From a virus (taxonomy: Duplodnaviria; Heunggongvirae; Uroviricota; Caudoviricetes), in IMG/VR virus record IMGVR_UViG_3300028534_000514, positions 64,001 through 128,000 of that record: 64,000 nt of DNA; one strand, given 5' to 3'. The notes under the pieces were generated by a model, which saw only the letters and a list, made by a program, of their open reading frames with translations, made no database searches and was not told the origin of the DNA. Below are positions 7,250 through 57,105 of the stretch, piece by piece (within the stretch, counting starts at the first letter, position 1; each line of letters starts with the position of its first letter). The position numbers were made by a program, and so were the translations under genes.

Positions 7250-7582
7250 ATGGATTTTTTATTAAAATTTTTACCGTCTAGTTCATTATTAAAATTAGGC
7301 GGGGTTCTGTTAATAATAAGCTCTTTGGGGTATTTTTTATGGGACTGGCATTACTCAGTTATAAATGATTTAAATCGAGCAATTGCTCAAAAGGAGCAAT
7401 TGCTCGAAAAGAGCAAAGCCAATTTAAAAGAGGTACTAAAAGAAAATAAATTATTAGAGAGCAACCTCAAAACCGTTGGTTCCGAACTCAACATATGCAA
7501 ATTAGAAATGGATGCATATGATGAAACGGATATTAATTTTAACCCGAAGGATACAGAAGATGAAAACTATTTTGTATATTAG
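7250..7582 (+). CDS. i-spanin (Rz-like)
   Basis: N-terminal TM helix then coiled coil; overlaps the downstream lipoprotein gene. Confidence 0.65.
   Translation: MDFLLKFLPSSSLLKLGGVLLIISSLGYFLWDWHYSVINDLNRAIAQKEQLLEKSKANLKEVLKENKLLESNLKTVGSELNICKLEMDAYDETDINFNPKDTEDENYFVY
7377..7417. repeat. 17-bp-period GAGCAATTGCTC palindrome array, site A (inside a CDS)
   Basis: Units start at 7377, 7394 and 7411, separated by 5-bp A-rich spacers. Confidence 0.9.
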
Positions 7583-7907
7583 TATTCTAAGTCTATTTTT
7601 TATGGGTTGTGGACAAATAACAGAACCGCAACCAAATAATGATTATATTTATATTAAAAATAAATGTCCGGATTTAACAATTCTTCGACCAATCCCAAAG
7701 AAATATAGAAATATAAAAAAGATCAAGGTTACTTTCGAAAAAACGGATGATCCAAAAAAAGTTATTGTATTAAAAGATGTTCTTAAACAAGGTTCAATTA
7801 ACTCTTATAGAAAAGATCTTCTTATTCAAAAACAAGATAAATATATACGTTTTTACGAAAAAGAAATACGAGAATATTTAAGATTTAAAAAAGAGCTGGA
7901 ACAATAA
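7560..7907 (+). CDS. o-spanin (Rz1-like) lipoprotein
   Basis: MKTILYISILSLFFMGC lipobox, Pro-containing linker, overlap with the i-spanin candidate. Confidence 0.7.
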   Translation: MKTILYISILSLFFMGCGQITEPQPNNDYIYIKNKCPDLTILRPIPKKYRNIKKIKVTFEKTDDPKKVIVLKDVLKQGSINSYRKDLLIQKQDKYIRFYEKEIREYLRFKKELEQ

Positions 7908-7940
7908 TTGGAAGCATTTAAGCTTCCAATTATTCCTGTG
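7903..7940 (+). terminator. Hairpin terminator with CCTGTG tail
   Basis: AATAATTGGAAGC-ATTTAA-GCTTCCAATTATT-CCTGTG. Confidence 0.8.
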
Positions 7941-7977
7941 CTTCAACAAAGATACATTAGTAATTTTAGGAGAAAAT

Positions 7978-10900
7978 ATGAAACGAAATCCTTTATATGT
8001 CTTTAAGAACGAGGATACTATTGGTGTCTTTGATGTACCATTACATTCTGTAATACAGATTCTTGAAACAAGAAATAATAGAGTACTTGTTGTAGAAATA
8101 ATTAATAAAACTGGTCTTACTCCTGCCTCAACCATCAGAGATTTACTAGATAATCAAAGTCTTTATACTGTTCTTTCTGATGGAACCGGGGGTGGTGAAT
8201 TAGCAAAATATGTTGAAAACAATAAAACTGGTTATAAATTATGGGATGCAAATCTTGATTATTATGGCCCACTTGGACAAAATTCGGTTGATTTTAGTTT
8301 CCAACCCCCAATCCCTAATGGAATAGGCGGGACTACCGGGGATAATTCTTTTGCTGTCGGATATGGGACCATTTCAGAAGGTCTTTCTTCTTTTTCTTCA
8401 GGGAGAGAAACTATCGCGAGTGGAAGACAATCGTCATCTTTTGGTTTAAAAACAAAAGCTTCAGGTGAACAATCTTTCGCAGCGGGTTATGCCTCGGAAG
8501 CAACTGGCAAAAATGCTGTAGTTTTCGGTAATCTTAATAAGGCTCTTGGTGAAAATTCTTTTGTCGAAGGTCATGAAAATATGGCTGGTGGGTTCGCAGC
8601 TCATGCTGAGGGTGGTCGTAATAATGCGGGAGGAAACTTCTCGCACGTTGAGGGTAGTCTTACTAAGACAACCGATATTAATGCACACGCCGAAGGTTAT
8701 AAAACAGAAGCCGGTAAAAATGCCCACTCGGAGGGGGCTGAAACAATGGCGTTGGGTCTTTCCTCACATTCAGAAGGATTAATTACTCAAGCCCTTGGTG
8801 TCGGTTCCCACTCTGAAGGGTATATGACAATCGCTGAAGGGGATTACTCTCATGCTGGCGGTGATACCACCAAAGCCTCTGGTGAAGCTAGTTTTGCAGT
8901 AGGTATGGGTTCCGAAACAAACGGTGATTATTCTTTTGCCGGAGGCCATAGTTGTATTTCGAACGGTAAGAGTTCGCTAGCGTTTGGTTTGGAGTGTGTA
9001 TCCAATGGTGAAAATGCAATCTCGTTAGGTTATGGAACCTCAGCAACAACCGATGAAGCATTTGCTATTGGGTATAAAACATTGGCTTCCGGTTTATCAA
9101 GTTTTGCTGGAGGGTATAAAACCCAGGCTATTGGTGTCCAATCTTTCGCGTTCGGTCAAAGTAATATAGCTGCCGGAAACTATTCAATTGCTATGGGTAA
9201 TAAAACTCAAGCATCTGCGGATGGATCGACAGCCTTTGGTTTAGAATCAGAAGCAACAGGCGAATATTCCTCAGTAGAAGGTGGGTATACAAAAACAACA
9301 TCGAATTATTCAAAAGCTATTGGTTTTTGGACAATAGCCCAAAATGATTCAATGCTGGCAGCTGGACGATACAATCTTCCAAAAACAGGAACCCTACTTG
9401 AAATAGGTTCTGGACTAGATTTAAATAACAGAAAAAATGCTTTTGAAATTGAAACATCTGGATTAGTATCTGCTCCTGATATGGTGTACATTGATTTTGA
9501 TAACCTTGTCGATGAAAATATTATTGTTAAAAAATCTCTATTAGAGCATACCGATATTTTAGCGAGTGAGCTCCGATCACAATTAGAAAAAATTATTGAA
9601 AATGGTAATGTTGGATATAGAATTTATGGTCGGGATCCAAATAAATTTGGGGATATTGGTCAGGATGCAATCGACTTAAGTTATACTACTGTTAATAATA
9701 ATGAGCTTGGTGCAACCGGCGATTATTCATTTACAACTAACGTTAATAATAAAGCGTCTGGCTTGCAATCATCCGCTTTTGGATTTGGAACGTCCGCTGA
9801 AAATGAAAATGCATTAGCGACAGGAACTCAAACTTCTGCAACTGGTGTAAATTCCGCTTCTTTTGGACAAGGAACAGAAGCTTCGAATGAAAACTCCACA
9901 ACCTTTGGTTTTTATACAAAATCTTCTGGAATAAATTCAATAGCTGCCGGTTACCAAACAGAGGTCTCCAGTGAAAATTCGTTTGCAACCGGTAATCTTA
10001 ATAAAATACTTGGAAATAATTCATTCGCCAGTGGTTCATCGAATACTATTGGTCTTGGAGGAACATCTGGCGCTATCGGATCAAATAATACAGTTAATGG
10101 TTCGGCGTCATTTACAAGTGGTCTTTCAAACATATTAAACGGAGACTATAATTTTGCTATCGGATTAAATAACAATCTTAATGATAATAACAATTTTATT
10201 ATCGGAACAGATAGTAATATAAATATAGATAATGCATTTGCTATTGGTAAAAATCTTGAAAATAATACAAGATATGCACTTGTAGTAGGGCGCTATAACC
10301 AAAATAACTCCGATAATATTTTTGAAATAGGAAATGGTTATTTAGATCAGACCGGACCTGTTCTTCAGAATGCACTTGAAGTTAATTTTGATGGGATGAT
10401 TTTTGCACCGACCATGGATAAGATGGAAATTGAAAATTCTACCAATGGCTCTATATTAATTACTCGAGAATTTTTTGATGAGCATCAGGGATATCTTGAG
10501 AGAATCACGGAGGGACCTGCTGGTTCGGAACGAACTGGCTATAGAATTAGATTTAGAGATCCTCAGTGGTATGGAAGAATAGGTGAAGAAGCTGTTGATT
10601 TAAGTTACAGTGAAGGCGAAGCTCTTGATTTTGGAGCAACTGGTGATTATTCTTTTGCTGTTGGTTATAAAACATCAGCTACCTCGGAATATTCAACTGC
10701 GTTAAACTTCAGTACAAAAGCTACTGATAAATTTACATTGGCAGTTAATCAGTGTTCAGAGGCAAGAGGTATGGGTGCAATGGCGAGCGGTTTTTGGACG
10801 CTAGCCAGTGGCTCTTTTTCACATGCAGAAGGTGTAAGTAAAAGAGATGAAACTAATGATACTACGGAATATACTGAAGCGCGAGGAAAAGGTTCGCATG

Positions 10901-12156: not shown

Positions 12157-12165
12157 AGGAAAATT

Positions 12166-13047: not shown

Positions 13048-13080
13048 AACAAACAGAAAATTAAAATAAAGGAAAAAACA

Positions 13081-16000: not shown

Positions 16001-17472
16001 GGTATCTGTATGCGGATAATTGTTACGGTTTTTATATTGATTCGGATGAAGAGAGCAATAATAGCAATATTAAATCTATAAAATTATTGGCCACAAATGA
16101 TATGACTGATCTTGAAAGTGCTTTTGATAATAGCACCGGCTCTGGAACCATGCTAGATAATCTAATTAACATTACATTTGAAAAAACAGTTGATACACGA
16201 AGAGTTACTACTATGGGTAGTTTAGTCAGAGATTGTAGAAATATAGTTAAATTTGATGCTAGCAACTTGCATTTTGAGAATGTTATAGATCTTAGTCACA
16301 TGTTGGATGGATGTAATAATATTAATGATATTAAATGGAGCACAACGCCAACATGGAAAACAACAGATATGTCATATATGCTTAGTCAAATATTTTCATT
16401 AGAAATTATGGATATTTCAGTACTTAATATAGCTAATGTCACAGATATGTCAAGAATGTTTAAAAATTCAGGTTTTAAATTTATTAAGATGCCTGCCGAT
16501 ATCTCTAATGGCCCTGCGTGTAATATGAATGAACTTTTCTATGGATGTAGTGAACTTGAATGTATAGATGTCATCAATACTGAAAATGCTACGGGCACAT
16601 CATACATGTTCGTCAATTGTGATTTATTAGTTGCTCCGGGCTCAGCAGATCAAGACGATATCGAGAATCAAATAAATCAGCCTTGGGTCAATCCTAGTGA
16701 ATGTGTGCCTCTTTTTGAATTATTTATTTTTTCTACCGATGAAGTGGATTCAGATATGTTCGAAACGGATGCCAATTTGGCACTTACTGAGGTGACTGGT
16801 TATCCAGATTATAAATATAGGGTAGCAGATCGTAAAAATGATGTGGCTCCTCTTGAATTTAAATTTGCGGATGCTCCTGGAGTCAGTGAAATAACAAAAG
16901 TAGTTGTAAAAAGAACAGGTACTCTGACGAATATGGATTATTTCTTTTCACCATCTGAAAATGGCAGACATATGGACTCATTGACAGAAATTATCTTCGA
17001 AGATACAGTTAATACTTCCAATGTAACCAGTATGAGAGGGTTATTTAAGATATTACCTGCTATGGATAACTCGACAATCGTCGGTTTATCTAATGTCGAT
17101 ACTCGAAACGTGGAGGATATGCACGCTTGGTTTGAAAGAAATGATAACTCAAACTTCACCCAAATTAACCTAGAAACGATAAGTACACAATCAGTAACTG
17201 ATTTATCTGATTTTTTCCTCAATTGTAATAATCTTGAATATATTACAATGCCTTCTGATATTATTACGGTTCAACCTAATGCAGATATGTATCATTTATT
17301 TTATAATTGTGAACATCTAAAATGTATCGATAAAATAGACACGACGAATGCAACCGATACCACTGGTATGTTCTATGATTGTGTAGATTTAACTGCACCT
17401 GATTCAGCGGCACAGAGCGATATCGAAAATCAAATAAATCAACCTTGGATTAATCCAAATAGCTGTCCATGA
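13081..17472 (+). CDS. Large virion fibre or adhesin with a glycine-rich domain and BspA/DUF285-type repeats
   Basis: CMIGGGGSGG Gly-rich domain; many DTSNVTxMxxMF repeats; internal duplication DIENQINQPWxNP. Confidence 0.8.
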   Translation: MAFRRRALYTFKDENETGINNIPINSTIFVASTKEIYILNDIAGMDDTTTIGDAISSSNMELAKTYGIQWFSSSNDFNTSTTLFEVPYENNELKIQFNIAANAVNDGKIINFSIEDSVIVPAGLNDISHNIMTYVTVAAGDKDDGTIFNYPVYIDHDSTTPDVIKVRLKEANISNGYAIASANYMVNESSTNKTYSELNWYIDPTFEAPGPITDFTASDTLGERIRVSWTHSDTGLPQCFYNLIDANTGAVLKEGVKPGFELPYLGSIDLQIEAINSEGKILSNIDNGNSMPFTVIEMPQFDQKTCIEDWLINEGYAPGAYKIINNLIQPTICSGDLSNYDIYLLNNGEIIGQGTNGLELTDRLVLENLGWIRTLGAPAGSITFDVAGAQSWTVPDYLSQMEVCMIGGGGSGGISSDVYSETYSGGGAAGEIITDTLFVAPGESIDFYIGAGGASPDGSGGAINSGNPGEETTILGLTAAGGVGGTNRETEANTVYKGDEAETTNCFGTFTDGNLAADGSRLSYGGQAGFADGTDGVRNGATLDAQYGAGSGGLVKGDNDLTTGKGGDGVIHLSWPETDAQYSIYGIEWLCLEASTLGNLDGPTFDTGATTPECSSVDGIVWKFCMEIESTSIPVVEADGNINVISAGSYYLATSTDDITNVKFSDDAANTDVTRVYVKKMDTITSIESMFFPSWTNTMDNLTTIEFGYVNFENVTNMEYAFMATGIQNLSINHLDTSNVTSIRSFLYKSKIEKLSLRGMNFENVDDMFNAFSESRLKTIDFRNIKFPNSCDMSKFFKGCYYLECITNLDTTGSNTDSMFDNCYALVHPDSDEQEWLKNGNVWINDAVCEQVWYDNSDNYITIDDLGSGNYQITGKFKGVDIIDVTYDYIDSYWTGSIFRGNDEYMYIIGEPSENFGAPPPSIGTFKIARYSSRPYHNFEAYIYSSTEPYFKMRYRENQAFPDPIKQDMGDGRWYLYADNCYGFYIDSDEESNNSNIKSIKLLATNDMTDLESAFDNSTGSGTMLDNLINITFEKTVDTRRVTTMGSLVRDCRNIVKFDASNLHFENVIDLSHMLDGCNNINDIKWSTTPTWKTTDMSYMLSQIFSLEIMDISVLNIANVTDMSRMFKNSGFKFIKMPADISNGPACNMNELFYGCSELECIDVINTENATGTSYMFVNCDLLVAPGSADQDDIENQINQPWVNPSECVPLFELFIFSTDEVDSDMFETDANLALTEVTGYPDYKYRVADRKNDVAPLEFKFADAPGVSEITKVVVKRTGTLTNMDYFFSPSENGRHMDSLTEIIFEDTVNTSNVTSMRGLFKILPAMDNSTIVGLSNVDTRNVEDMHAWFERNDNSNFTQINLETISTQSVTDLSDFFLNCNNLEYITMPSDIITVQPNADMYHLFYNCEHLKCIDKIDTTNATDTTGMFYDCVDLTAPDSAAQSDIENQINQPWINPNSCP

Positions 17473-17624: not shown

Positions 17625-17879
17625 TTGAAATTATTTAAAATAAGATATGATCACTGGCTACATTTATTTGCTGGTTATATCATAATGATAACTGCCCTTC
17701 TTTTTACTGATCCCTTAATCGCTTTTATAACAACTGCTTATATAGCATGGATAAAAGAATGGTATGATGAATATATTAGAAATTCTAGTTTTGATGTTTT
17801 TGATACAATCTGGACTGGAATTGGTGGTATATTGGCTTGGCTAATATTCTTACTAACGATGTCTTTTGGAGTCCTTTAA
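17625..17879 (+). CDS. Small multi-TM membrane protein
   Basis: TTG start after AAGGA; three hydrophobic segments. Confidence 0.6.
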   Translation: MKLFKIRYDHWLHLFAGYIIMITALLFTDPLIAFITTAYIAWIKEWYDEYIRNSSFDVFDTIWTGIGGILAWLIFLLTMSFGVL

Positions 17880-17944
17880 TGAGGATTCTGAAACGCATCG
17901 CGTTAGTCCAAGGACTTAAAAAATTTTATTCTAAAGGAAAATTC

Positions 17945-18529
17945 ATGAAAAGAATTTTACTAGCAACAATTGTTGCACTAACAACTGCTTTCGCAGGTGG
18001 GGATATTGCTCCTGCACAGACACCGGTAGAGATCGTTCCAACTAAAAATTTCTATGTTGGGGGTGGTATTTCAGCACACACAACATATAAAGATGGAGAA
18101 AAAGATTTTTTCAATGATACTGATGAGAGCGAAATCTCTGGAGGAATCGAAGCCAAACTTGGGTATATTTTTTATAGAACTGGCGACGCAAGTATGGCTA
18201 TTGAAGGACAGATCGAAAGAACTATCTGGGGTATGGATATTGAAGACGTAGACTATATCTATAGTTATGGACTTTATATTAAACCAGCTTATGATATTAC
18301 AACAGATATCACCGGTTATATTCTTCTTGGATATGGGCGTACTGAGGTAGAATTTAATGTAGATGATAGTTATGGTGAAAGCGGATTTACATATGGGATT
18401 GGAGCAGAATACTCTCTTAATGATGAATGGGGTCTTTATGGAGAATATGTAATGTTGCCTTCATTTAACGATCTTGATATCGATATCAATAATGATAAAC
18501 TTTCACTCGGTGTAGTTTATAAATTTTAA
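17945..18529 (+). CDS. Outer-membrane beta-barrel (porin-family/OmpA-TM-like) protein
   Basis: Signal peptide MKRILLATIVALTTAFAGGDIAP; amphipathic strands; C-terminal SLGVVYKF BAM signal. Confidence 0.85.
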   Translation: MKRILLATIVALTTAFAGGDIAPAQTPVEIVPTKNFYVGGGISAHTTYKDGEKDFFNDTDESEISGGIEAKLGYIFYRTGDASMAIEGQIERTIWGMDIEDVDYIYSYGLYIKPAYDITTDITGYILLGYGRTEVEFNVDDSYGESGFTYGIGAEYSLNDEWGLYGEYVMLPSFNDLDIDINNDKLSLGVVYKF

Positions 18530-18577: not shown

Positions 18578-18610
18578 GATTATTTTCGAGCAATTGCTCA
18601 AAGGTAGCTA
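18578..18610. repeat. GAGCAATTGCTC array, site B (intergenic)
   Basis: GATTATTTTC-GAGCAATTGCTC-AAAGG-TAGCTA; degenerate second unit 17 bp downstream. Confidence 0.8.
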
Positions 18611-20469: not shown

Positions 20470-21207
20470 ATGTCAAAAATAAAAATAAAGAAATATTTAG
20501 AGGTTGAAAAACATAAAGTATTTACAAAAATCCCGGCGCGTATTGTATTAAATTTAGAAGACTATAAAGAGATAAACGAAAGTTATGGTGAGGAAATTGG
20601 TATAGCTGAGATAGATAACGTTTTTGAAATACCTGGATTTTTTACACTCGAATTTCCGGATGAAAGCGATTCAATAGATTTCTTTTTCCCGTATACAATT
20701 TATCTTCATAAAACAGATAAAATTGAAAAAAACAAAGATAGATTGGTTATAGATTTTAAACCTGGCGATATGGTTTGGTATGCTAATTTTAAGGAAGAAG
20801 AAACTAATATTTATGTTCTTAAATCCTTATTTGAGAATGGAGTTAAATATCTCGGCGATAAACCAGATAAATTAATTACTGCTATTTGGGATCAATTAAT
20901 GCCGACGAATACCCCATGGCATCATTTAGAATTAATAGTTAGCCAACTATATGGAACATATGATCCAAAAACAAAAGAAATACTACCTTTAAGATTGACC
21001 AACCATAAATATAGTAAAAAATATATTATGAATCTTAAAGAATCCGCCCACAATTTAAATCAAACACTACCAATTATGTATGGTTATAGTAAGGATGCTC
21101 TCCGATCAATGGTATCAAAGAAAAAACGAGGAACCAATTCCTTTTTCGAAAATATTATTAGCGGCGACTATGATGAATTGACAAAAGAATATAAAACTAA
21201 AAAATAA
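20470..21207 (+). CDS. Putative split multisubunit RNA polymerase beta-prime C-terminal subunit
   Basis: PWHHLELIVSQLY resembles beta-prime KHIEVIVRQM; the following PLRL and C-terminal helices fit that position. Confidence 0.5.
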   Translation: MSKIKIKKYLEVEKHKVFTKIPARIVLNLEDYKEINESYGEEIGIAEIDNVFEIPGFFTLEFPDESDSIDFFFPYTIYLHKTDKIEKNKDRLVIDFKPGDMVWYANFKEEETNIYVLKSLFENGVKYLGDKPDKLITAIWDQLMPTNTPWHHLELIVSQLYGTYDPKTKEILPLRLTNHKYSKKYIMNLKESAHNLNQTLPIMYGYSKDALRSMVSKKKRGTNSFFENIISGDYDELTKEYKTKK

Positions 21208-22850: not shown

Positions 22851-23252
22851 TTATATTTTTAGACTTTTAACTTTTGATTTCAAAAGATTTAATTCAAATT
22901 CTGTAAAAATAAATATCGGTTCAAATACTGTATCCTGTTTACGCCCATTTAAAAAAATATAATTATTACCAGTAGGTTGAAATATAATATATCTTTTAAG
23001 AATTTTATCTTGTTCCGGTGAAAAGGTTTCGCCGAGACCAATATTTAAAGGTTCATCAAGATCTATTTTTATTTTATCTCTTAAGGTATATAACGGCGTT
23101 CCGTCCGATTTTGTAAAGAAGAATATATTAAGATGACAATAAAGACTACCATTATATACAAAATCTAATTTAATCTTTTCACCCCCAACAATCGTTTCTA
23201 CTTCTGCTATTAGAATCCCATTAAGAGTATCTTCCATTATAAATTTTAACAT
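22851..23252 (-). CDS. Hypothetical protein, same C-terminal motif family
   Basis: IFIFTEFELNLLKSK. Confidence 0.6.
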   Translation of the reverse strand: MLKFIMEDTLNGILIAEVETIVGGEKIKLDFVYNGSLYCHLNIFFFTKSDGTPLYTLRDKIKIDLDEPLNIGLGETFSPEQDKILKRYIIFQPTGNNYIFLNGRKQDTVFEPIFIFTEFELNLLKSKVKSLKI

Positions 23253-23272: not shown

Positions 23273-23310
23273 TTTTGCTCAAACATAGCAATTGCTCGAA
23301 AATAATCTTC
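23273..23310. repeat. GAGCAATTGCTC array, site C (intergenic)
   Basis: TTTTGCTC-AAACA-TAGCAATTGCTC-GAAAATAATC. Confidence 0.85.
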
Positions 23311-23314
23311 TCGA

Positions 23315-23608
23315 TTATTTCTCTTTTTTTTCTTCTTTTAATTTAAGTTTAAATAAAAAAGCTTTTAAAATACTGTCTGTAATTCGAGGAGTAGTAACCG
23401 ATAGCGGAAAAAAACCATATTTTGATGACCATCCAGTCCATGTATTATCACTGTCTAAATAAAGAATTAAATCTACCCCATGCTTAGATGCTAGATATTC
23501 AATATTGTTAGTTATTGTTGGCCTGGTTAGATCATTTCCTTGATAAGCAATAAAAACTCTTTTTTCGAACCGATATCTTATGAATCCTGTATAATCTGGT
23601 GAAGTCAT
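23315..23608 (-). CDS. Hypothetical protein
   Basis: ORF whose start overlaps the upstream stop. Confidence 0.6.
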   Translation of the reverse strand: MTSPDYTGFIRYRFEKRVFIAYQGNDLTRPTITNNIEYLASKHGVDLILYLDSDNTWTGWSSKYGFFPLSVTTPRITDSILKAFLFKLKLKEEKKEK

Positions 23609-31296: not shown

Positions 31297-31338
31297 AAAG
31301 CTTTGCTCAAAAGTAGCAATTGCTCAAAAAGAGCAAAT
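31297..31338. repeat. GAGCAATTGCTC array, site D
   Basis: AAAGCTTTGCTC-AAAAG-TAGCAATTGCTC-AAAAA-GAGCAAAT, 17-bp period. Confidence 0.9.
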
Positions 31339-31358: not shown

Positions 31359-32753
31359 ATGGCACGTACCAGAATTAAAGCTAAAGATATTCTCGATCGG
31401 ACGTTAACCGGAGCCAGTTTCGATGAATCTCTTAGTTTTTATGATGAAACCAAAGATTATTCTATTGGAGATAGAACACAATGGCATGGTGTTTGGTGGG
31501 AGGCAATTAATAATATTACTGGAACATCAGAAGGTGATTTATCTAATGCTCCGGATATATCTAGTGATTGGAAAATGGTAAAAAATTTACTATGGTCCGC
31601 CTACCCATCAGCAGCTCAGACCTTTAATGATGTTGCCGTAACTTTAGAGTTTGATAGTGAGAGAGAATCGAATCCTGGAATTACACTAAATACTGGTGAA
31701 ATAACTTTTAATTCCGGAGGGGATTTTTTAATTGCTTTAGAATATACAGCAGTTAATACAAGCACAACCAGAATGACCTCAAAAGCTTATTTTGAATTTT
31801 CAACTGATGGGACCAATTGGGAGGTGTTAAATAATACCGAAGCTTGGTCATATAATAGAGAATCAAATCAAGGAAGAAACACCGCTTCAATTTCTTTACC
31901 AATTACAGTAAACTCCGGAGATATGATTCGGGTTAAAATGCAAAGTAACGGCTCTACCAATATTACAAATGTTATTGAGGGGTGTAATATCTCAATATAT
32001 GCTCAGACTGGAAGTCAGGGAATACCAGGCGAACAAGGACCTCAAGGATTAACAGGAGCTCCTGGAGATATAATTTGGACAGGACCGTGGGATTCAACTA
32101 GAACCTATAATGAAAATGAAGCTGTCGAATATCTAGGATCTTCGTATGTTTCAACGTCTAACTCAAATACAGAGACTCCTTCAGACACAGCGTCAAATTG
32201 GGATTTAGTCGCTTCTAAAGGTAATGATGGTTCAGGTACTACTATTAATATAGCAGATGAAGGCTCGACTATACCTAATACCCCACACGGAACTCTAAAT
32301 TTTAAAGGAGAATATGTTGAGGCGACTGATGCCGGAAGTGGAACAGCTGATATTACGATCTTGCCGACAAAACAATCATATTCCATTGCTATTTGGGCTG
32401 AAGAAAATGCTTCATTAGGAAATGATACTTTTGAATGGGCTTTTGGTAACGGGGCTAACACCTCAGCAAATAATGGTATTTCGATTTTTGTACCGTCTGG
32501 ATATTCATGCGAAGTAGTCGGGATGTCTTTAAATCTAAATGCAGGTCAGGCTGAGGTTGAATTATATATAAATGGAGCATCCGTTTCTAGATCAGTAAGT
32601 GGTGATGTAAATGCTGGAAATAAATCACCAGCAGTGGATGTAAATTCTCTACCTTTAAATAATGGGGATAGACTAAATTTTAAAACTGTCACTGCTTCAA
32701 ATACCTCAGCGCCAAATACAGTGTGCGCTTGGTTAAAATATACGGAATTATAA
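31359..32753 (+). CDS. Fibre protein with C1q/BclA-like, short collagen and CBM5/12-like segments
   Basis: GIPGEQGPQGLTGAPG; WTGPWDSTRTYNENEAVEYLGSSY; ATG at 31359 after AAGGAG. Confidence 0.75.
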   Translation: MARTRIKAKDILDRTLTGASFDESLSFYDETKDYSIGDRTQWHGVWWEAINNITGTSEGDLSNAPDISSDWKMVKNLLWSAYPSAAQTFNDVAVTLEFDSERESNPGITLNTGEITFNSGGDFLIALEYTAVNTSTTRMTSKAYFEFSTDGTNWEVLNNTEAWSYNRESNQGRNTASISLPITVNSGDMIRVKMQSNGSTNITNVIEGCNISIYAQTGSQGIPGEQGPQGLTGAPGDIIWTGPWDSTRTYNENEAVEYLGSSYVSTSNSNTETPSDTASNWDLVASKGNDGSGTTINIADEGSTIPNTPHGTLNFKGEYVEATDAGSGTADITILPTKQSYSIAIWAEENASLGNDTFEWAFGNGANTSANNGISIFVPSGYSCEVVGMSLNLNAGQAEVELYINGASVSRSVSGDVNAGNKSPAVDVNSLPLNNGDRLNFKTVTASNTSAPNTVCAWLKYTEL

Positions 32754-36463: not shown

Positions 36464-37189
36464 ATGCCAGCAAAACTTGAAAGATGTGTTAAGCACGTGC
36501 TTGACCAAGGAAAAGATAAAAATTCGGCTTATGCAATATGCTCAAAATCTACAGGATGGGTAAAATCAGGTGCCCATAGTTGGAGAAAGAAAGCAAAAAC
36601 CAAATCAAAGAAATTAGAAGAGGTTTGCTCAAAAGGAGCAATTGCTCAAATAGAGCAATTGCTCGAGGAAACTGATTTTTTATCTAGATATAGGAATGGT
36701 GTTTATTCTAGTGTAAAGCTCGATCCAACAGCTTTAAAAAAACTTCAAAAATATTTTGAAACAGTTGGTATCAAAATGATGCCATTAAATAAAATTCATA
36801 TTACCGTAATCTATAGTCGCACCCGGCCAAATAAAGAACCAAACGCATTTGAAATTAATGGAAGTGTAACCCCAGTATCTTTTGGTATTTTTGGAAAGGG
36901 AACTAAAGATCAACCATATGCGTTGGTCCTGCAGGTGGATAGCCCGCAGTTAACTACCGCCCATATGAAAATGCGAAAGGAATATGGTTTAAAGCCGACA
37001 TATCCGGAATATAAACCACATATATCATTAACCTATGATATTCATCGAATTTTACCAGGAATTTCTAAACTTTCACAAAAACAAAAGGATACTATTATTA
37101 ATGTATTTAATAAGATGATTCCTGAATTGCCTAAAAACATTAGAATATTGAACCATACAGTTGAACCAATTAATTTAAATTGGAAGTAG
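36464..37189 (+). CDS. acb1: Acb1-like (T4 gp57B) 2H phosphoesterase, candidate anti-CBASS, with an N-terminal MPAKLERCV extension
   Basis: GVYSSVKL...KIHITVIYSR and YKPHISLTY 2H motifs in the Acb1 arrangement. Confidence 0.7.
   Translation: MPAKLERCVKHVLDQGKDKNSAYAICSKSTGWVKSGAHSWRKKAKTKSKKLEEVCSKGAIAQIEQLLEETDFLSRYRNGVYSSVKLDPTALKKLQKYFETVGIKMMPLNKIHITVIYSRTRPNKEPNAFEINGSVTPVSFGIFGKGTKDQPYALVLQVDSPQLTTAHMKMRKEYGLKPTYPEYKPHISLTYDIHRILPGISKLSQKQKDTIINVFNKMIPELPKNIRILNHTVEPINLNWK
36619..36669. repeat. GAGCAATTGCTC array, site E (inside the acb1-like CDS)
   Basis: GGTTTGCTC-AAAAG-GAGCAATTGCTC-AAATA-GAGCAATTGCTC-GAGGA. Confidence 0.9.
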
Positions 37190-38539: not shown

Positions 38540-38574
38540 TTAATATATTTATAGTTTTAATTGCTATTCTAAAG
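38540..38574 (-). promoter_or_regulatory. Putative early promoter
   Basis: CTTTAGAATAGCAATTAAAACTATAAATATATTAA. Confidence 0.75.
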
Positions 38575-47700: not shown

Positions 47701-47703
47701 ATG

Positions 47704-47738
47704 TTAATATATTTATAGTTTTTTACTTTATTCTAAAG
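47704..47738 (-). promoter_or_regulatory. Putative early promoter
   Basis: CTTTAGAATAAAGTAAAAAACTATAAATATATTAA. Confidence 0.75.
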
Positions 47739-47805: not shown

Positions 47806-47841
47806 GACAGGAAAATGGAAGGTCAATCGACCTTCCATTTT
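47806..47841 (-). terminator. Hairpin terminator with CCTGTC tail on the minus strand
   Basis: AAAATGGAAGGTC-GATT-GACCTTCCATTTT-CCTGTC read on the minus strand. Confidence 0.8.
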
Positions 47842-48200
47842 TACCAACTTGTAAAATCCATAGCAGGAGTTGATTCGGTTGGTGTCTCTTCCTTTTCTTC
47901 TGGCTTGCTCTTTTCGAGCAATTGCTCCTTTTGAGCAAAGCTTTTAAATTCATCCTTTACAAAATAATCCCAAAAATCTTCAGATTCTGCAAATTTTTTG
48001 ATAGCGATATTAATCATTGCAGATGCCATTTCCGGATGAACCATCTGGATGTACTCAAGAACTTTAATATCCGCAGTAAATGTCGCGGAATTAGACGGTG
48101 CAGGGGACTGTTGCGCCTGTTGTTGAGGCGGCATTGGTTGTCCCATAGGTTGTTGTTGTTGTTGTTGTGGAACGTATCCACCCCCATCATGAAATTGCAT
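47841..48200 (-). CDS. Small protein with a Gln/Pro-rich N-terminus and a possible ribbon-helix-helix (ParR-like) domain
   Basis: ATFTADIKVLEYIQMVHPEMASAMINIAIKKF beta-alpha-alpha pattern; same operon as parM. Confidence 0.45.
   Translation of the reverse strand: MQFHDGGGYVPQQQQQQPMGQPMPPQQQAQQSPAPSNSATFTADIKVLEYIQMVHPEMASAMINIAIKKFAESEDFWDYFVKDEFKSFAQKEQLLEKSKPEEKEETPTESTPAMDFTSW
47905..47943. repeat. GAGCAATTGCTC array, site F (inside a CDS)
   Basis: 47905-47938 is the exact reverse complement of 7383-7416. Confidence 0.9.
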
Positions 48201-48753
48201 GTATTTCCTCCAGTTTATTTTTTATTTCTTCAGTATTAAACGCTTCGATTAAAAAATCTTCTTTAATATTATCTATTTGGGTTTCACTGACATGAACGTC
48301 ATTATTTTTTGGAAGATTCTTATTTACCATTTTAATAATAAATAATTCATATCCATAGTCTTCTGCAAATTTGCGTAAAGCAGCCTCTTCATTGGTATAT
48401 CTTAAATCTGTTACTAAAACATAGTCTGGCTTTAAATTTTCTATAAAGTCTTGGGTTCTTGTTAGAGTTAAATTAACCCATATATTTTCCCCAATATAAG
48501 TTTTAATTGCTTCCCCCAATTGCTGATACACTTCCCGGAGGGTTAATCCATTAAAAGGTTTTATATCCATCCGTTTAATTAAATCCGCTTGGGAATTTTT
48601 TATACCAAAACTATCATGAATTATATTTTTAAGAATATCAGCGAAGGATACCTCGATAATTAAAGCATTTTTTCTTTCAAGTTTATCACGTAGATATTCC
48701 GCGGCAGTATTTTTACCCGAACCTTTAGCACCGGTAAAAGCTATAATTTTCAT
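48187..48753 (-). CDS. Deoxynucleoside monophosphate kinase
   Basis: IIAFTGAKGSGKNT P-loop, FADILK, REVYQQLGE, VTDLRYTNE. Confidence 0.9.
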   Translation of the reverse strand: MKIIAFTGAKGSGKNTAAEYLRDKLERKNALIIEVSFADILKNIIHDSFGIKNSQADLIKRMDIKPFNGLTLREVYQQLGEAIKTYIGENIWVNLTLTRTQDFIENLKPDYVLVTDLRYTNEEAALRKFAEDYGYELFIIKMVNKNLPKNNDVHVSETQIDNIKEDFLIEAFNTEEIKNKLEEIHAIS

Positions 48754-49658
48754 TATATGACCCCACTAATATTTCCAAATTCATATGGTTTATCGGTAAA
48801 AATAACATTTGGAGGAAAAGCAATGCCTTCTAAGAGATAGCAACCCCCACCAGCTAAAATTACTTTTTCAGAAGTAGCCAATATCTTTTTTTCTCCTGTT
48901 AAAACAGAAGAAAATAATTTTTTTACGAATTGGGATTTAAGCTCTGTAATTTTTTCGGTAACCTGGGGTTGTTCTGCTCCATTAAAAATAAATTTATTAT
49001 TCATAAAAATTTTAAGGGCTTCTGCTTCTCCAAAAGGCATATTAAATGTTGATTCAAGATATGTTGCGAACGGGCGAAGAATACTCGATACCCCATGTCC
49101 ACTATAACCTTTTGAATGAGCTTTTTTTGGTTGGCCATTTTCATAAACCAGGAAATTAATGGTATTAAATCCAATATCGATGATTGCTGCTGAACTCGGG
49201 TGCACTCCATTTTTTCCTACAAATTGCATATATGCCCCAGCACCCTGCGGAAGTAGGGTAATATTATCAAATTTCAATTGATTACCATTTACTTCAAAAG
49301 AAGAAAGCACTTTTAAATATTCGTCTTTATGTTTCCAGTCGGCTAAAGCTAATGTTAAAAATAATTCAACATTACCCGATACAGCATCCTCCACTAAATT
49401 TAATTTTTTAAGTACATGATAAATAATTACAGGATCAAATTGTTGTTTAAATCCGAAATCTGTTGTTGTAAAAGTCTCTAATCCGACTGCAGCTTCACCA
49501 ACGTAATAGGTTTCTCCTTTATATTTAACTACATCATCCTCCCCATAATCAATTCCCAAATCGGTGGCAAAAGCAATAGCCGAAGGGAAACGATAAAGCT
49601 TTCCTTCGTATTTAACCTTAGTAGAACTATACCCTATATCGGCAGCTAATTTTTTCAT
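48753..49658 (-). CDS. parM: ParM/StbA-family actin-like ATPase
   Basis: AADIGYSSTK (phosphate 1), PQGAGA (connect 1), IIDIGFNTIN (phosphate 2), ILAGGG (adenosine). Confidence 0.85.
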   Translation of the reverse strand: MKKLAADIGYSSTKVKYEGKLYRFPSAIAFATDLGIDYGEDDVVKYKGETYYVGEAAVGLETFTTTDFGFKQQFDPVIIYHVLKKLNLVEDAVSGNVELFLTLALADWKHKDEYLKVLSSFEVNGNQLKFDNITLLPQGAGAYMQFVGKNGVHPSSAAIIDIGFNTINFLVYENGQPKKAHSKGYSGHGVSSILRPFATYLESTFNMPFGEAEALKIFMNNKFIFNGAEQPQVTEKITELKSQFVKKLFSSVLTGEKKILATSEKVILAGGGCYLLEGIAFPPNVIFTDKPYEFGNISGVI

Positions 49659-50075: not shown

Positions 50076-50560
50076 TTATCTACAGCAGCATATAAATCCA
50101 CTTTATTTTCAGTAAATTGTTTTCTTAAGAAATTCATATTATTAAAAAATTCTTTTTCGGAGGCGTAGCCATAATAATGAGGATTTATTGACCAATTATA
50201 TAATAAATCAATAACCTGCTTCATTTTTTCATAATGCCAATTATTATTTAACATTATAAAGGTGAACGGACCAATATATTGCCAATCAAGAATTATATTG
50301 CATTGTTTATAAATTATCTTTTGCATCTCTGGATTGGGCTCAGAGCAATTGCACCAGTAACTTAAATTAACAAGTTTAATATAATTTGTATAAAGTTGTT
50401 TTTTGAATTCTTTTGACATTTCCTGTTTAGTTAGGTACATATAAAGCTCTTTTAGAAAAATATATTCCAATTCATTCATTGGACTATATTTTCCAGTTCT
50501 CTCTATATATTTAGACATACGTGTTTCTAATTTCCATTTTGTCCATTTCGTCGTACTCAT
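50024..50560 (-). CDS. Hypothetical protein
   Basis: Start coupled to the helicase stop. Confidence 0.6.
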   Translation of the reverse strand: MSTTKWTKWKLETRMSKYIERTGKYSPMNELEYIFLKELYMYLTKQEMSKEFKKQLYTNYIKLVNLSYWCNCSEPNPEMQKIIYKQCNIILDWQYIGPFTFIMLNNNWHYEKMKQVIDLLYNWSINPHYYGYASEKEFFNNMNFLRKQFTENKVDLYAAVDKWPKEFRKRFHRLKEVH

Positions 50561-52293: not shown

Positions 52294-52340
52294 AGATATT
52301 CCTCCGTATTAAAATTGTATTGTTAATAATTTATATTATG

Positions 52341-52364
52341 ATTTTATTGGAGCTCCAATAAAAT
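52341..52364 (-). terminator. 24-bp perfect palindrome, probable terminator
   Basis: ATTTTATTGGAGCTCCAATAAAAT. Confidence 0.55.
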
Positions 52365-52401
52365 TACCAACTGGAGTGATAATAAAAATCTGAGGATCTA
52401 A

Positions 52402-53695: not shown

Positions 53696-53739
53696 TATCC
53701 TTTAGAATTTTTTAATATTTAATAAAATAAAAATAAAAT

Positions 53740-54060
53740 TTGGTTCTAGGGCACTGTCGCCCAGACTTTTTAACGTGTTCAGTCACGCCCTCTTTCGAAT
53801 AAGGTGGGTCTTACACCTTATTACCAGTGGTTTCAAGCCACCACGCGGGTTTCCACAACTATCACCTATGAACTCTTTGAGCTTTCGGCGCTGGCGCTAT
53901 ACGATAGTTGGGACGCTTTGGGGATTTTTGACGTCCGCCCGCCCGTTATTAAAGACAATACGAAGTTAGTTGCCGATGAGACCATCTCATCGATACTTTT
54001 CTCCGTTTCTCTAACTTATCGGAGGTCTAAGGACCTTTGCCCGATTTTCGGAAAGAGAAT
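53740..54060 (-). ncRNA. ~320-nt GC-rich highly structured RNA
   Basis: Stems CGAUGAGA/UCUCAUCG, CAACUAUC/GAUAGUUG, AAUAAGGUG/CACCUUAUU, GUGGU/ACCAC, AGGUC/GACCU, GGGC/GCCC; AT-rich flanks. Confidence 0.7.
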
Positions 54061-54136
54061 TAATGTCACATATTTATATAATATTAATTATGTAAATACC
54101 TCATATCATTATATAATAAAGACTCCTTGTCTTCAT

Positions 54137-54173
54137 TAATAATATTTATATACTTTTTTGCTTTATTCTAAAG
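54137..54173 (-). promoter_or_regulatory. Putative early promoter (variant)
   Basis: CTTTAGAATAAAGCAAAAAAGTATATAAATATTATT; a second TATAAATA at 54071-54078. Confidence 0.65.
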
Positions 54174-54191
54174 CAGAAAAATAAAGAATTT

Positions 54192-54203
54192 AACAAAGAC
54201 CTA
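54192..54203 (+). promoter_or_regulatory. Putative late promoter AACA-N6-TA
   Basis: AACAaagaccTA. Confidence 0.55.
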
Positions 54204-54222
54204 TATAAAAAAAGGAGAAAAA

Positions 54223-54816
54223 ATGCCATTTGGACGTAGAAGAAATAAAGATTCTTTTTTTTGCTATAAAAGGTATCCTCCACGAGCACCTGTTGATGGC
54301 TGGTATCGAGTAAGTCTACTAAGGGATGATTATAATGCATATGATAGAACAAGCTTTAAAAAAGATGACAGTTATTTTGGTTTATATAAACATTATTTCG
54401 AAATGAGTAATGGTATAATGTTATTAAAAACTACTGGTGATTTTGGGTCCCCGAATTTATATAGGTCGAAAGTCCAAAATACTGATACATTACACGCGGA
54501 TAAATACCGGACCAATCCAGGAAGCTACCGATGCCAGTTAAAATTCGATTATACTACTCGTACCTGGGAACGTCTCGATGATAATGGATATATGCTTTAT
54601 CCCGTGGAAATAAATGCTCCAAGTCCGTCTTTAGCCTCAGACATTGAACCAAATATGAATTCTTGCAGTTTAGGTGTATGTTTAAATGATCCAAGATTTC
54701 TGGTAACAATAACATCGAAAAGACATTATACATTTAATCATTCTGGACAATATTCAGAATTTCCAAAATATGGTTATATATGGCTATTTGCGGGTGAGAC
54801 AATAGACAGCATATAA
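54223..54816 (+). CDS. Hypothetical (probable virion) protein
   Basis: RBS AAGGAG; first gene of the + block. Confidence 0.65.
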   Translation: MPFGRRRNKDSFFCYKRYPPRAPVDGWYRVSLLRDDYNAYDRTSFKKDDSYFGLYKHYFEMSNGIMLLKTTGDFGSPNLYRSKVQNTDTLHADKYRTNPGSYRCQLKFDYTTRTWERLDDNGYMLYPVEINAPSPSLASDIEPNMNSCSLGVCLNDPRFLVTITSKRHYTFNHSGQYSEFPKYGYIWLFAGETIDSI

Positions 54817-54858
54817 AATCGGAACAAAAATATACATAAATTAATTAAAGGATAAAAC

Positions 54859-55446
54859 ATGTTAATGGATGAATTTAAAGCTATTTTTGCTGAAAAAACA
54901 TATCAAAATGGGACCTCAAGTATTTCTGACCTTGAATTGGTACTTAAAGAAATGGGGGCAGATATAACCGCTATTAAAGAATGGCCATCAGCTGAATATT
55001 TTTATGAAACTCTTACTGGCGCAATGGAAACTGTAGATAGAAAAAAACTACTTAGCACTTCTGACTTTAGAAATATTATGAAGATGATGGGCGCTACTCA
55101 AGATGAAATCAATAAATTAATTGATCCAACTTTCTATGGAACAATGACTGTTACAGACCTTCGCCAGGCATTAATTAAAATGTCAAGCGATTATGTCGAG
55201 CCAGATCTTAATGGTCCTACTATTACCATTCTTGGTAATAATCCAGAGTATGTTCTCAAAGGAGATACATATGTCGATGCTGGGGCGACTGCTGAAGACG
55301 AGAAAGACGGGGATCTTACTGGAGATATTATTACCGATAATCAAGTTGATACTACCTATTCCGGTGAATATGCTGTTTATTACACAGTAAAAGATTCCGA
55401 TGGTAATGTGGCAGAGGATAAAAGAACAGTAATTGTTCACACATAA
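54859..55446 (+). CDS. Protein with a C-terminal Ig-like DUF5011-type domain
   Basis: GPTITILGNNPEYVLKGDTYVDAGATAEDEKDGDLT...YTVKDSDGN. Confidence 0.85.
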   Translation: MLMDEFKAIFAEKTYQNGTSSISDLELVLKEMGADITAIKEWPSAEYFYETLTGAMETVDRKKLLSTSDFRNIMKMMGATQDEINKLIDPTFYGTMTVTDLRQALIKMSSDYVEPDLNGPTITILGNNPEYVLKGDTYVDAGATAEDEKDGDLTGDIITDNQVDTTYSGEYAVYYTVKDSDGNVAEDKRTVIVHT

Positions 55447-55459
55447 TTATATTATACAA

Positions 55460-55494
55460 AAATATATCTCGCTAAAGCGAGATATATTTCCTGT
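55460..55494 (+). terminator. Hairpin terminator with CCTGT tail
   Basis: AAATATATCTCGCT-AA-AGCGAGATATATTT-CCTGT. Confidence 0.8.
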
Positions 55495-55541
55495 TGCTTT
55501 TTTAAAGAAACAAATAGATAAGAAAAATAAAAGGATAAATA

Positions 55542-56237
55542 ATGAAACGAAATCCCTTATACGCTTTTAAAGATGGAAACTCAATTGGAGTATTTAATAT
55601 ACCTTTGAATTCTACAATTCATATTTTGGATGATAGTACGGATGGTACAGGTAATACTAGATTTGTAGAAATTATTTCTAAAACTGGATTAAATCCTGGA
55701 TCGACGATTGCACAATTTCTGGCTAATCCAGATTTATATATTGATCTTTCAAATGAGAATATATCTCCATCTCAGCTTCAAAAGATTGAGGTCGATGGTA
55801 AAACAGGGTGGAGGATATTAGGAAGAGACCCAAATAACTATGGCGAAATTGGGGATCAAGCTATTGATTTAAGTCTTAGTTTAGATTCGGGTAGTGTAAA
55901 TGGAGCAACGGGTTATAACTCCTTCGCTGTCGGTTTAAATGTGGAAGCAAGTGAAGATAATAGTGTTGTATTTGGCAATAATACAAAATCAAATTATTAT
56001 GGTGAAACAGTATTTGGTTCTTACAATGTAGACCCACAATCAAGTGTTAATGGTCCAACAAAATTCGTGGTTGGTATTGGAACTAATTGGGAAAACTATC
56101 AGAATGGTTTTGAAGTATATACAAATGGAGTTGTTAGAGCACCAAGTTGTTCAATAGCTGAAATTGCCGCGAGTGATGAAAAAACTCTTGTGACAAAAGA
56201 GTACGCCGATGATATCGATGGCGGGGATTTAACATAA
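55542..56237 (+). CDS. Short YadA-like fibre, single-module paralogue of 7978
   Basis: MKRNPLY.FK N-terminus, GWRILGRDP..YG.IG..AIDLS, NGFEVYTNG..RAP. Confidence 0.8.
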   Translation: MKRNPLYAFKDGNSIGVFNIPLNSTIHILDDSTDGTGNTRFVEIISKTGLNPGSTIAQFLANPDLYIDLSNENISPSQLQKIEVDGKTGWRILGRDPNNYGEIGDQAIDLSLSLDSGSVNGATGYNSFAVGLNVEASEDNSVVFGNNTKSNYYGETVFGSYNVDPQSSVNGPTKFVVGIGTNWENYQNGFEVYTNGVVRAPSCSIAEIAASDEKTLVTKEYADDIDGGDLT

Positions 56238-56254
56238 GAAGTAAAGGATGATTT

Positions 56255-57043
56255 ATGTCAAAAATGATAAGAATTAAAAGAGGAACAGATGCCGCTCGCT
56301 CCAATCACCTATTGGCTTTAGGAGAATTATTATGGACTACTGATACAAATGTTCTTTGGATTGGTGATGGAATAACCCTCGGTGGAATCAAGGTTACTGC
56401 CTCCTCAGAAGTGGATTTTATTAGAAACTCAGAACGAGCAGTTGCAAATGGGGTAGCAACATTAAATGAAAATGGAAAAATTCCAGATGATCAATTGCCT
56501 CCTCTCTCATTAACAGAAACTTTCGTAGTTAATAGCGAGCTTGAGATGGTAAATTTAGATGCTCAGATGGGTGATGTTGCAATTAGAACGGATATTGACA
56601 AAACGTATATTAAAGGGAGTGGCACCACAGGTACCTCCTCTGATTGGATAGAACTATTAACAGCTGACGGTGTATCAAGCGTTAATGGCCAAACAGGTAA
56701 TGTTATTCTTGAACTAAATGATTTGGATAACGTTGATGATTCAGTTCCTAGCGATGGATTTTTGCTTCAATTCGATACTGGGCTTGGCAAATGGACAGTT
56801 GTATCTCCTGACAATATTGGACGCACAGAATTCGTTGCACTTGATGATACTCCGGCTGACTACACCAATTCAGACGGCTACCTTTTGCAGGTCGACGAGA
56901 CAAATAATCAAGTTATTTTTACGGACGTTATTGATGGTGGCACCTACCAAGGGACAACCTCTGCTATTAATAGAACCACTACAGTTTCAGCTAGTCGACG
57001 AGTGGCTACACCAAGACCAGTAAGAAGACCAAGACCCAGATAA
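56255..57043 (+). CDS. Tail fibre protein with an Mtd-N/hyaluronidase-N-type anchor
   Basis: IRIKRGT...LGELLWTTDT..LWIGDG; VANGVATL...GKIP..QLP; VSSVNGQTGNV. Confidence 0.8.
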   Translation: MSKMIRIKRGTDAARSNHLLALGELLWTTDTNVLWIGDGITLGGIKVTASSEVDFIRNSERAVANGVATLNENGKIPDDQLPPLSLTETFVVNSELEMVNLDAQMGDVAIRTDIDKTYIKGSGTTGTSSDWIELLTADGVSSVNGQTGNVILELNDLDNVDDSVPSDGFLLQFDTGLGKWTVVSPDNIGRTEFVALDDTPADYTNSDGYLLQVDETNNQVIFTDVIDGGTYQGTTSAINRTTTVSASRRVATPRPVRRPRPR

Positions 57044-57052
57044 AAAAAGAAA

Positions 57053-57105
57053 GATTATTTTCGAGCAATTGCTACTTTTGAGCAAAAGCTCGAAAATTTC
57101 CTGTG
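57053..57105. repeat. GAGCAATTGCT array, site G, folded into a TTCCTGTG-type hairpin
   Basis: GATTATTTTC-GAGCAATTGCTA-CTTTT-GAGCAAAAGCTC-GAAAATTTCCTGTG. Confidence 0.85.

Follow-up and report, generated by a model that had tools for sequence, protein, structure and literature searches.

Why should a large bacteriophage write the same palindrome into its chromosome many times over, between genes and straight through coding sequence alike? This question is raised by a 64,000-nucleotide stretch (hereafter the window) of the tailed-phage record IMGVR_UViG_3300028534_000514. The window comprises bases 64001–128000 of the 281,455-bp record, which has 33% G+C and represents an uncultivated jumbo phage. 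A preliminary description, made from the window's letters alone, had reported seven dispersed arrays of the 12-bp palindrome GAGCAATTGCTC and proposed that they function at the level of DNA, as sites for a dimeric protein. Here, we ask whether the arrays are real, whether selection acts on them as DNA, and what might read them. Positions are those of the window unless given as genome positions.

All seven sites were read directly in the sequence (arrays A–G, Table 1). With at most one mismatch allowed, GAGCAATTGCTC matches the window 10 times, against 0.08 expected, and 0 of 100 shuffles reached 10. The repeating unit is a 12-bp palindromic core plus a 5-bp A/T-rich spacer, with outer units reduced to half-sites, and this anatomy bears out the 17-bp period described earlier. 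So, too, does the reported inverted identity hold, 7383–7416 being the reverse complement of 47905–47938 in all 34 bases. As for the flank said to be shared by B, C and G, arrays B and G carry GATTATTTTC, and array C carries its reverse complement. Three arrays (A, E and F) had been placed within genes, and they indeed lie in open reading frames (ORFs) 7250–7582(+), 36464–37189(+) and 47841–48200(-), respectively. The second of these matches Pfam Acb1 (E 1.1e-18). The first, previously called a spanin, gave no family match and shows only a hydrophobic N-terminus followed by coiled-coil-like sequence. An eighth core match, at 50343 (GAGCAATTGCAC), is without flanking arms and looks like chance.

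Across the whole genome, we counted 42 cores (0.6 expected) and 56 spaced dyads of the form TTGCTC-N5-GAGCAA (0.45 expected). No other hexamer makes inverted repeats on a comparable scale, the sole lesser case being ATAATC-N5-GATTAT. Clustering yielded 44 places, of which 7 are chance-like, leaving ∼37 arrays, or about one per 7 kb. In the notation used below, X is GAGCAA, X' is TTGCTC, Y is GATTAT and Y' is ATAATC. Every true array holds a core XX', made of two facing half-sites (G/T)AGCAA; in each half-site, the outermost position is either G or T, and the remaining five bases are nearly invariant. Arms are present on both sides of 36 of 40 cores, with X'-N5 or Y-N4 on the left and N5-X or N4-Y' on the right. 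By arm class, these 40 cores comprise 19 XX, 14 XY, 3 YY (perfect 32-bp palindromes) and 4 with one arm missing. Because spacers measure 5 bp between half-sites and 4 bp before ATAATC, half-site centres fall alternately 6 and 11 bp apart, giving the 17-bp period. Individual arrays are only 23–40 bp long.

To assess the arrays inside genes, we shuffled synonymous codons 100 times, with all proteins and the codon usage of each gene preserved. Coding DNA contains 22 cores, versus 3.2 after shuffling (maximum 9), and 36 spaced dyads, versus 5.5 (maximum 9). The preliminary description had named a motif no commoner than in codon-shuffled controls as the outcome that would speak against it; what we found is the reverse. 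Orthologous genes were also compared. In four orthologues of the 47841–48200 gene, the codons of invariant amino acids are identical in 8 of 9 cases inside the array and 8 of 36 outside it (P = 4e-4); for the Acb1-like gene, the corresponding fractions are 4/5 and 12/56 (P = 0.015). In the latter gene, 13 bases (GAGCAATTGCTCG) are invariant in four phages, amid a linker with ∼62% DNA identity and several indels. (The Acb1-like gene, compared at 36464–37189(+) and L006:6844-7428, has an extra N-terminal domain in three phages; in a fourth, it begins a short way ahead of the array and is preceded by a late-promoter-like AACAAAG word.) In-gene cores are read in EQLL or AIA frames and never as Ser-Asn-Cys (P = 0.003), and arrays with two cores use the one frame pair that avoids Ser-Asn-Cys. 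Frame use and conservation together indicate that the proteins do not code for the sites but make room for them in tolerant coiled-coil or linker segments. Judged from these sequence comparisons, the arrays are a real, selected cis-element, and selection acts on the nucleotides themselves.

Relatives of the phage were available as metagenomic fragments. Related-phage contigs were reached via terminase homologues, and 13 metagenome loci related by tblastx were added; motif scans of metagenome and genome contigs returned mostly chance matches. A megablast of 12 kb against the phage collection gave no match, a terminase search in the viral contig collection found no relative, and a motif scan of that collection produced one match only, unrelated and high-GC. 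The presence of arrays in close relatives had been put forward as a check, and they are indeed found there, at orthologous places, even in phages whose proteins are 62–86% identical. Half-sites are conserved, and spacers vary. When a half-site carries a G/T variant, the partner half-site does not compensate: matching changes were seen in 0 of 17 cases in cores and 2 of 25 in dyads, with ∼3 expected by chance. Fixed half-sites, free spacers and uncompensated G/T changes form the pattern of a protein-binding site and not of base-paired RNA. With a single varying position to go by, we take this conservation as weak evidence favouring a protein-binding site. The synonymous-site tests, the codon shuffle, conservation at orthologous positions with variable spacers, and the lack of compensatory half-site changes all support the earlier claim of DNA-level conservation independent of strand and gene context.

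More distant relatives differ in their palindromes. One lineage without the GAGCAATTGCTC motif has TAGTTAACTA arrays of its own, with a 14-bp period (10 observed, 0.04 expected), and another has GATCTTTNAAAGATC (17 observed, 0.44 expected). In the most divergent homologue of the 47841 gene (L148:421-455), all four half-sites are present, with one extra A in the middle of the core (GAGCAA-A-TTGCTC). This suggests that the spaced dyad TTGCTC-N5-GAGCAA may be the basic unit. In the distant relative L150 (e.g. 16296-16310 and 20754-20768), the word GATCTTTTAAAGATC is flanked by GC and followed by a T-run, resembling an intrinsic terminator when intergenic; the same word is present inside genes as well.

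What might read such sites? The preliminary description had envisaged a dimeric protein that stacks along DNA and had named the product of 47841–48200(-). This protein gave no Pfam family match, including to ribbon-helix-helix (RHH) families, no match by tblastn against cultured phages, no match in a profile search of Protein Data Bank (PDB) sequences, and nothing significant by Foldseek against the PDB. A first monomer model had a predicted local distance difference test (pLDDT) score of 52.6 and was too poor for use. A later model, built on an alignment of 65 family members, reached pLDDT 78 and consists of an extended strand followed by helices. In a structure search over 48,161 chains with this model, ∼25 of the top 30 matches were RHH proteins; matches included 2q2k_B (Z 3.8, root-mean-square deviation 1.9 Å, 40 residues aligned), PrpA, CopA, omega, PutA, RelB, ParD, ParR of pB171 and Arc. 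Modelled as a homodimer, residues 36–100 scored 0.69, versus 0.00 for the best control. Of 30 proteins solved as pairs of one chain, 20 attained that mark, as did 1 of 23 solved as single chains. The homodimer runs share at least 95% of contacts, with partner pLDDT of at least 77. In the dimer model, the two chains form an antiparallel ribbon of two strands through contacts 39-41, 40-40 and 39-43, and their B helices pack against each other. In a language-model atlas, the protein lies nearest RHH clusters, a score that serves only as a lead. Its family, ∼60 clusters at 50% identity, has a hypervariable ribbon, whereas helix B (INIAIKKF) and the C-terminal DFxxW are conserved. As predicted from alignment and model, this layout (DNA-binding ribbon, flexible linker, conserved tail) is that of a ParR-type adaptor. 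A dimeric, stacking reader is plausible, and the protein named earlier does model as an RHH dimer; its binding to the arrays is what we infer. It is the best candidate reader. Across the genome, a Pfam scan of all 194 predicted proteins of 50–210 amino acids (aa) detected no helix-turn-helix or RHH family, and searches with the HU, RHH_1, Y1_Tnp and T5orf172 families gave no matches. A sub-threshold match to the replication terminator protein (RTP) family at genome 5730–5978(-) (23.2 bits, cut-off 26.7) marks a second possible dimeric winged-helix DNA binder.

The candidate reader is encoded in the same operon as an actin-like ATPase, two genes downstream of it, and some database sources call homologues of the latter protein ParM. 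The same succession of actin-like gene, nucleotide kinase gene and gene for the small protein is seen in four further lineages, making five in all. Array F lies inside the candidate adaptor gene, and no array is found upstream of the actin-like gene. In a phage whose actin-like protein is only 62% identical, 34 of the 35 RHH residues and the arrays are both kept. In another, with 79% actin identity, the ribbon is altered (TFIID), and there is one core in 43.4 kb, against 5.7 expected (P = 0.02). The GATCTTTNAAAGATC lineage has yet another ribbon, and its homologue carries a copy of that lineage's own palindrome in the linker region. These correlations between ribbon and array would fit a reader and its sites. 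Among cultured phages, actin-like homologues with 45–50% identity occur in MW570730.1 (YerA41), LC779065.1 and PV155638.1 (Cobetia phage Carin-5). In YerA41, the actin-like gene is followed by a nucleotide-metabolism gene and then by one for a 95-aa protein whose start is strand-helix-helix and whose C-terminal tail is aromatic.

We also analyzed where the arrays lie. Gene calls beyond the listed ORFs came from a simple codon-usage caller, and some gene borders may be off. By these calls, non-coding DNA makes up 6.3% of the genome yet holds 19 of the 37 arrays (∼10-fold enrichment; binomial P ∼1e-13); the other 18 are inside genes. Nearly all Y-arm arrays are intergenic, and 13 of 14 have the Y arm (GATTAT) upstream in the direction of transcription (P = 0.002); arrays of the symmetric class have no orientation. 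Intergenic arrays are located at boundaries between transcription units, in variable order. Some lie just past a CCTGT-tailed hairpin, as does array B, directly 3' of a strong one. Others are fused to such a hairpin: the outer bases of array G pair with 57088–57096 (-18.7 kcal/mol), and a CCTGT tail and a late-promoter-like word follow. Still others lie between the late-promoter-like word AACAAAG and a ribosome-binding site, as seen for array D, ahead of gene 31359–32753(+), and for the array at genome 160124. For array C, the start of gene 22851–23252(-) is 22 nt downstream. In two arrays, the spacer GGAG doubles as a Shine–Dalgarno sequence. Genes downstream of arrays mix replication-type with virion-type functions, and functions of early type (ribonucleotide reductase) with those of late type (fibres, virion proteins). 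The spacing of arrays is more even than random (coefficient of variation 0.64 versus 0.95, P = 0.007), as determined without the seven arrays carried in paralogous homing-endonuclease genes.

These observations can be assembled into a tentative explanation. The arrays are cis-acting DNA sites and most probably serve to dock a small phage DNA-binding protein. Each would be bound by several dimers of one such protein placed side by side, in the manner of the RHH proteins Arc, omega and ParR on repeat operators. The most likely reader is the 119-aa protein encoded together with the ParM-like actin, and the most likely role of the arrays is that of dispersed anchor points by which the chromosome would be linked to the actin-like filament. 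When bound, arrays at gene boundaries might additionally hinder or pause transcription. Where intergenic space is lacking, tolerant coding segments hold the arrays instead. For the whole chain, from multi-dimer sites through the 47841 protein to tethering of the filament, which draws on sequence and structural models, we would not claim even chances, although we regard it as a serious possibility. A bolder version, in which the chromosome is 'holocentric', with ∼37 sites coupling the 281-kb genome to the filament via a ParR-like adaptor, and in which site and ribbon co-evolve, sister lineages using different palindromes and periods, seems to us unlikely.

Several points weigh against this explanation. 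The link between protein and array rests on few related lineages with shared ancestry. The divergent homologue L148 has an altered ribbon yet intact half-sites; the altered-ribbon lineage represented by a 43-kb stretch keeps the gene trio nearly without arrays; and Yersinia phage YerA41, with loosely the same gene order, has no repeated palindromes in 40 kb. Known ParMRC systems have one centromere, by the operon, and not dozens genome-wide. As for the protein, the structural Z-scores (3.8 or less) are low in absolute terms, as expected for a domain of only 45 residues, and homology is unproven. Because RHH dimers are common among solved structures, the passing dimer model may reflect likeness only. 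There is selection bias as well, since this protein was tested first because it had been named beforehand. The palindromes fold as RNA, too. Finally, the orientation of the GATTAT arm with transcription and the position of arrays at terminator and promoter boundaries suggest a tie to transcription rather than to positioning.

Might the arrays, then, be dispersed operators or roadblocks of a global transcription regulator, the same RHH protein or another, that block or pause phage RNA polymerases at gene boundaries and in 5' leaders? Such a role is compatible with filament tethering and does not exclude it, and position supports it at least as well as roles as centromere, in genome organisation or as origin. 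The intergenic arrays at unit boundaries, the asymmetric arm lying upstream, the two arrays between promoter-like word and ribosome-binding site, and the GGAG spacers would all suit it, and ParR-type RHH proteins are also autorepressors. The arrays would then work like the stoperators of Cluster A mycobacteriophages, which number more than 20, are dispersed and take their orientation from transcription (PMC9283540), or like the C1 operators scattered over P1. But the genes downstream mix early and late types, about half of the arrays lie deep within genes and are under the same selection, position relative to promoters is not fixed (upstream, downstream or far), and promoter control does not predict even spacing. 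We judge this transcriptional role to be on the unlikely side, while keeping it in serious contention. More doubtful, in our estimate, is action as RNA hairpins, in termination, in protection or processing of mRNA ends, or by masking of ribosome-binding sites. Two-core arrays do fold stably (about -24 kcal/mol, z about -7), array G combines its hairpin with a CCTGT tail, the three fully palindromic arrays (genome 16689, 234724 and 256019) are intergenic, with T-rich runs after two of them, and arm orientation tracks transcription, as an RNA role would have it; the terminator-like palindrome and T-run of the distant relative add to this. Yet it is sequence rather than pairing that is conserved, given that half-sites are fixed, loops and spacers vary and G/T changes go uncompensated. 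Single-core arrays fold weakly (-10 to -16 kcal/mol, z about -2), the TAGTTAACTA version would form very weak A/U hairpins, in-gene arrays are without tails, and no Rfam family was matched.

Two further explanations fare worse. The preliminary description had offered as its alternative an in-frame mobile palindrome, and copies of a small element of this kind, like a Rickettsia palindromic element (RPE), a repetitive extragenic palindrome (REP) or a miniature inverted-repeat transposable element, could account for the 34-bp stretch shared by two unrelated genes, for arrays in variable linkers with indels among orthologues, for the lack of the array in 47841-gene orthologues of two lineages, and for the seven copies in homing-endonuclease paralogues. 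Against this, positions are orthologous in phages as diverged as 62% in protein identity (62–86%); half-sites alone are shared, with spacers and flanks differing, which leaves no element body in common; arrays differ in composition (XX, XY, YY); and target-site duplications were not observed. Linkers have similar lengths whether or not they hold an array, and synonymous-site conservation indicates current function. The Y1_Tnp family, which includes REP-associated tyrosine transposases (RAYTs), is unmatched in the genome at E up to 1, while control genomes match, although a divergent enzyme is possible. Orthologous positions, the missing element body and the unmatched transposase thus disfavour the mobile element, which we consider very improbable. 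We put no more faith in replication origins, recombination hot spots or packaging marks akin to baculovirus homologous regions. Palindrome clusters that are dispersed and fairly evenly spaced, and that could extrude as cruciforms, would suit these roles, but 37 origins or packaging sites would be unprecedented in a tailed phage, arrays of 23–40 bp come without adjacent AT-rich unwinding regions or iterons, and composition and skew show no break at them.

How do the arrays compare with known systems? Type II partition systems (ParM, ParR and parC of R1, pB171 and pSK41) likewise have an actin-like ATPase, whose operon also encodes a small RHH protein with a linker and a conserved tail, the part that the candidate reader would play here. 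Their cis sites, too, are repeats with room for several adjacent dimers. The best structural matches of the candidate reader include ParR of pB171 and 2q2k_B; we take 2q2k to be the pSK41 ParR–centromere complex, its database label reading only 'nucleic-acid binding protein'. They differ in that parC is one block of ∼10 direct repeats by the operon, as opposed to ∼37 arrays of inverted half-sites over 281 kb, many in genes; here, moreover, a kinase gene separates the two par-like genes. With the operators of Arc, MetJ, omega and CopG, the arrays share geometry: the 11-bp distance of half-site centres matches the Arc operator, and the 6-bp distance comes near the 7 bp of the omega heptads and the 8 bp of the met boxes. 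These figures come from established structures, in which dimers bind adjacent repeats cooperatively. Such RHH operators are found at one or few promoters and not genome-wide. In the Corynebacterium prophage CGP3, too, a phage actin-like protein (AlpC) is encoded together with a DNA-binding adaptor, as the candidate would be here, and repeated sites (alpS) are present. AlpA, the co-transcribed adaptor, ties phage DNA to filaments, aids replication and oligomerises along the repeated sites; by contrast with the arrays, alpS consists of 24 short repeats (TTAAnnG) in one promoter region (PMC4446434, PMC5539076).

Other dispersed sites offer looser parallels. Stoperators of Cluster A mycobacteriophages such as L5 are also scattered (more than 20). 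They lie mostly in short intergenic spaces with orientation tied to transcription, a likeness that may extend to the intergenic and Y-arm arrays, as opposed to the 18 arrays in genes and the symmetric class. Each stoperator is an asymmetric 13-mer, to which the helix-turn-helix immunity repressor of a temperate phage binds as a monomer (PMC9283540, PMC6550527). Here, instead, a perfect 12-bp palindrome is set in dyad arrays, half of them in genes, in a polymerase-encoding jumbo phage. The C1 operators of phage P1 (consensus ATTGCTCTAATAAATTT) match the core-plus-arm ATTGCTCTAAAATAATC at ∼13 of 17 bases and are scattered, some being paired into incomplete palindromes. They are, however, asymmetric and bound by a monomer, and the resemblance may be chance. 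The C1 protein found no match in a six-frame search of the genome at E up to 10, by sequence search only. Highly iterated palindromes such as HIP1 of cyanobacteria are likewise words under DNA-level selection, inside and outside genes, but they measure 6–8 bp and recur every 200–300 bp, versus structured arrays of 23–40 bp every 7 kb with a candidate reader. Compared with intrinsic terminators, some intergenic arrays fold well and have T-rich or CCTGT tails, whereas in-gene and single-core arrays do not. Taken together, the arrays appear to be a new variant among dispersed operator or centromere-like sites, a function that we infer.

Should a ParR-like protein indeed read the arrays, no phage before this one would be known to spread centromere- or operator-like sites over its whole chromosome, even where they constrain protein sequence. 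Such reading would also provide a concrete DNA target for the actin-like proteins of large phages, including YerA41, Cobetia phage Carin-5 and Campylobacter phages. As palindromes differ from lineage to lineage, nature itself provides an experiment on how a protein and its DNA sites co-evolve. If the arrays are instead transcription punctuation, they would represent a third class of signal beside the early and late promoters of AR9-like, polymerase-encoding phages.

Table 1. Coordinates of the arrays and associated features (window positions unless marked as genome or as a relative; '.' denotes no assigned strand)
Feature	Position	Strand	Description
Array A	7377-7416	.	core, N5, core, N5, half-site GAGCAA; inside ORF 7250-7582(+); letters RAIAQKEQLLEKSK
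Array B	18578-18599	+	arm GATTATTTTC and core, then degenerate half-site; intergenic
Array C	23275-23318	-	TTGCTC, N5, core, N4, ATAATC, N5, GATTAT; intergenic
Array D	31303-31336	.	half-site, N5, core, N5, half-site
Array E	36625-36664	.	half-site, N5, core, N5, core; inside Acb1-like gene 36464-37189(+)
Array F	47905-47938	.	half-site, N5, core, N5, half-site; inside gene 47841-48200(-); letters FAQKEQLLEKSK
Array G	57053-57085	+	arm GATTATTTTC, core (1 mismatch), N5, half-site; 19 nt past stop codon
Candidate reader P0121, 119 aa	47841-48200	-	Q/P-rich N-terminus; RHH-like core, residues 37-71; linker carrying array F; C-terminal tail PAMDFTSW
Deoxynucleoside monophosphate (dNMP)-kinase-like gene	48187-48753	-	between actin-like gene and candidate reader
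ParM/Alp-type actin-like ATPase	48753-49658	-	Pfam ALP_N E 2.1e-13, MreB-like_C 1.7e-8
Early-promoter-like motif	38540-38574, 47704-47720, 54071-54173	-	
Homing-endonuclease-like genes	genome 20437-21282, 147857-150061, 246118-247149, 260426-261349, 268279-269343, 269346-270257	-	also L147:7031-8521

Some neighbouring features deserve mention. We considered whether the arrays are early promoters and rejected the idea, as a distinct AT-rich motif (…ACTATAAATATATTAAC…) is early-like, with ∼16 copies, all on the minus strand. That motif resembles the early consensus of AR9 (PMC5312081). In its strong copies, it reads TTTAGAATAA…AAACTATAAATATATTAACATTAG and is preceded by a small dyad of its own, GCTTTA-N3-TAAAGC. 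A second, G+C-rich dyad, GGCGCT-N2-AGCGCC plus GCGCTT|AAGCGC, occurs about five times genome-wide. The homing-endonuclease-like family comprises 7–8 genes with DUF723/DUF4379 zinc fingers and a T5orf172 GIY-YIG-like domain, the array lying at ∼80% of each gene's length; one relative has a copy inserted immediately ahead of its actin-like gene. Lastly, 17879–18529(+) encodes an outer-membrane beta-barrel protein (Pfam OMP_b-brl, E 1.7e-17), which points to a Gram-negative host.

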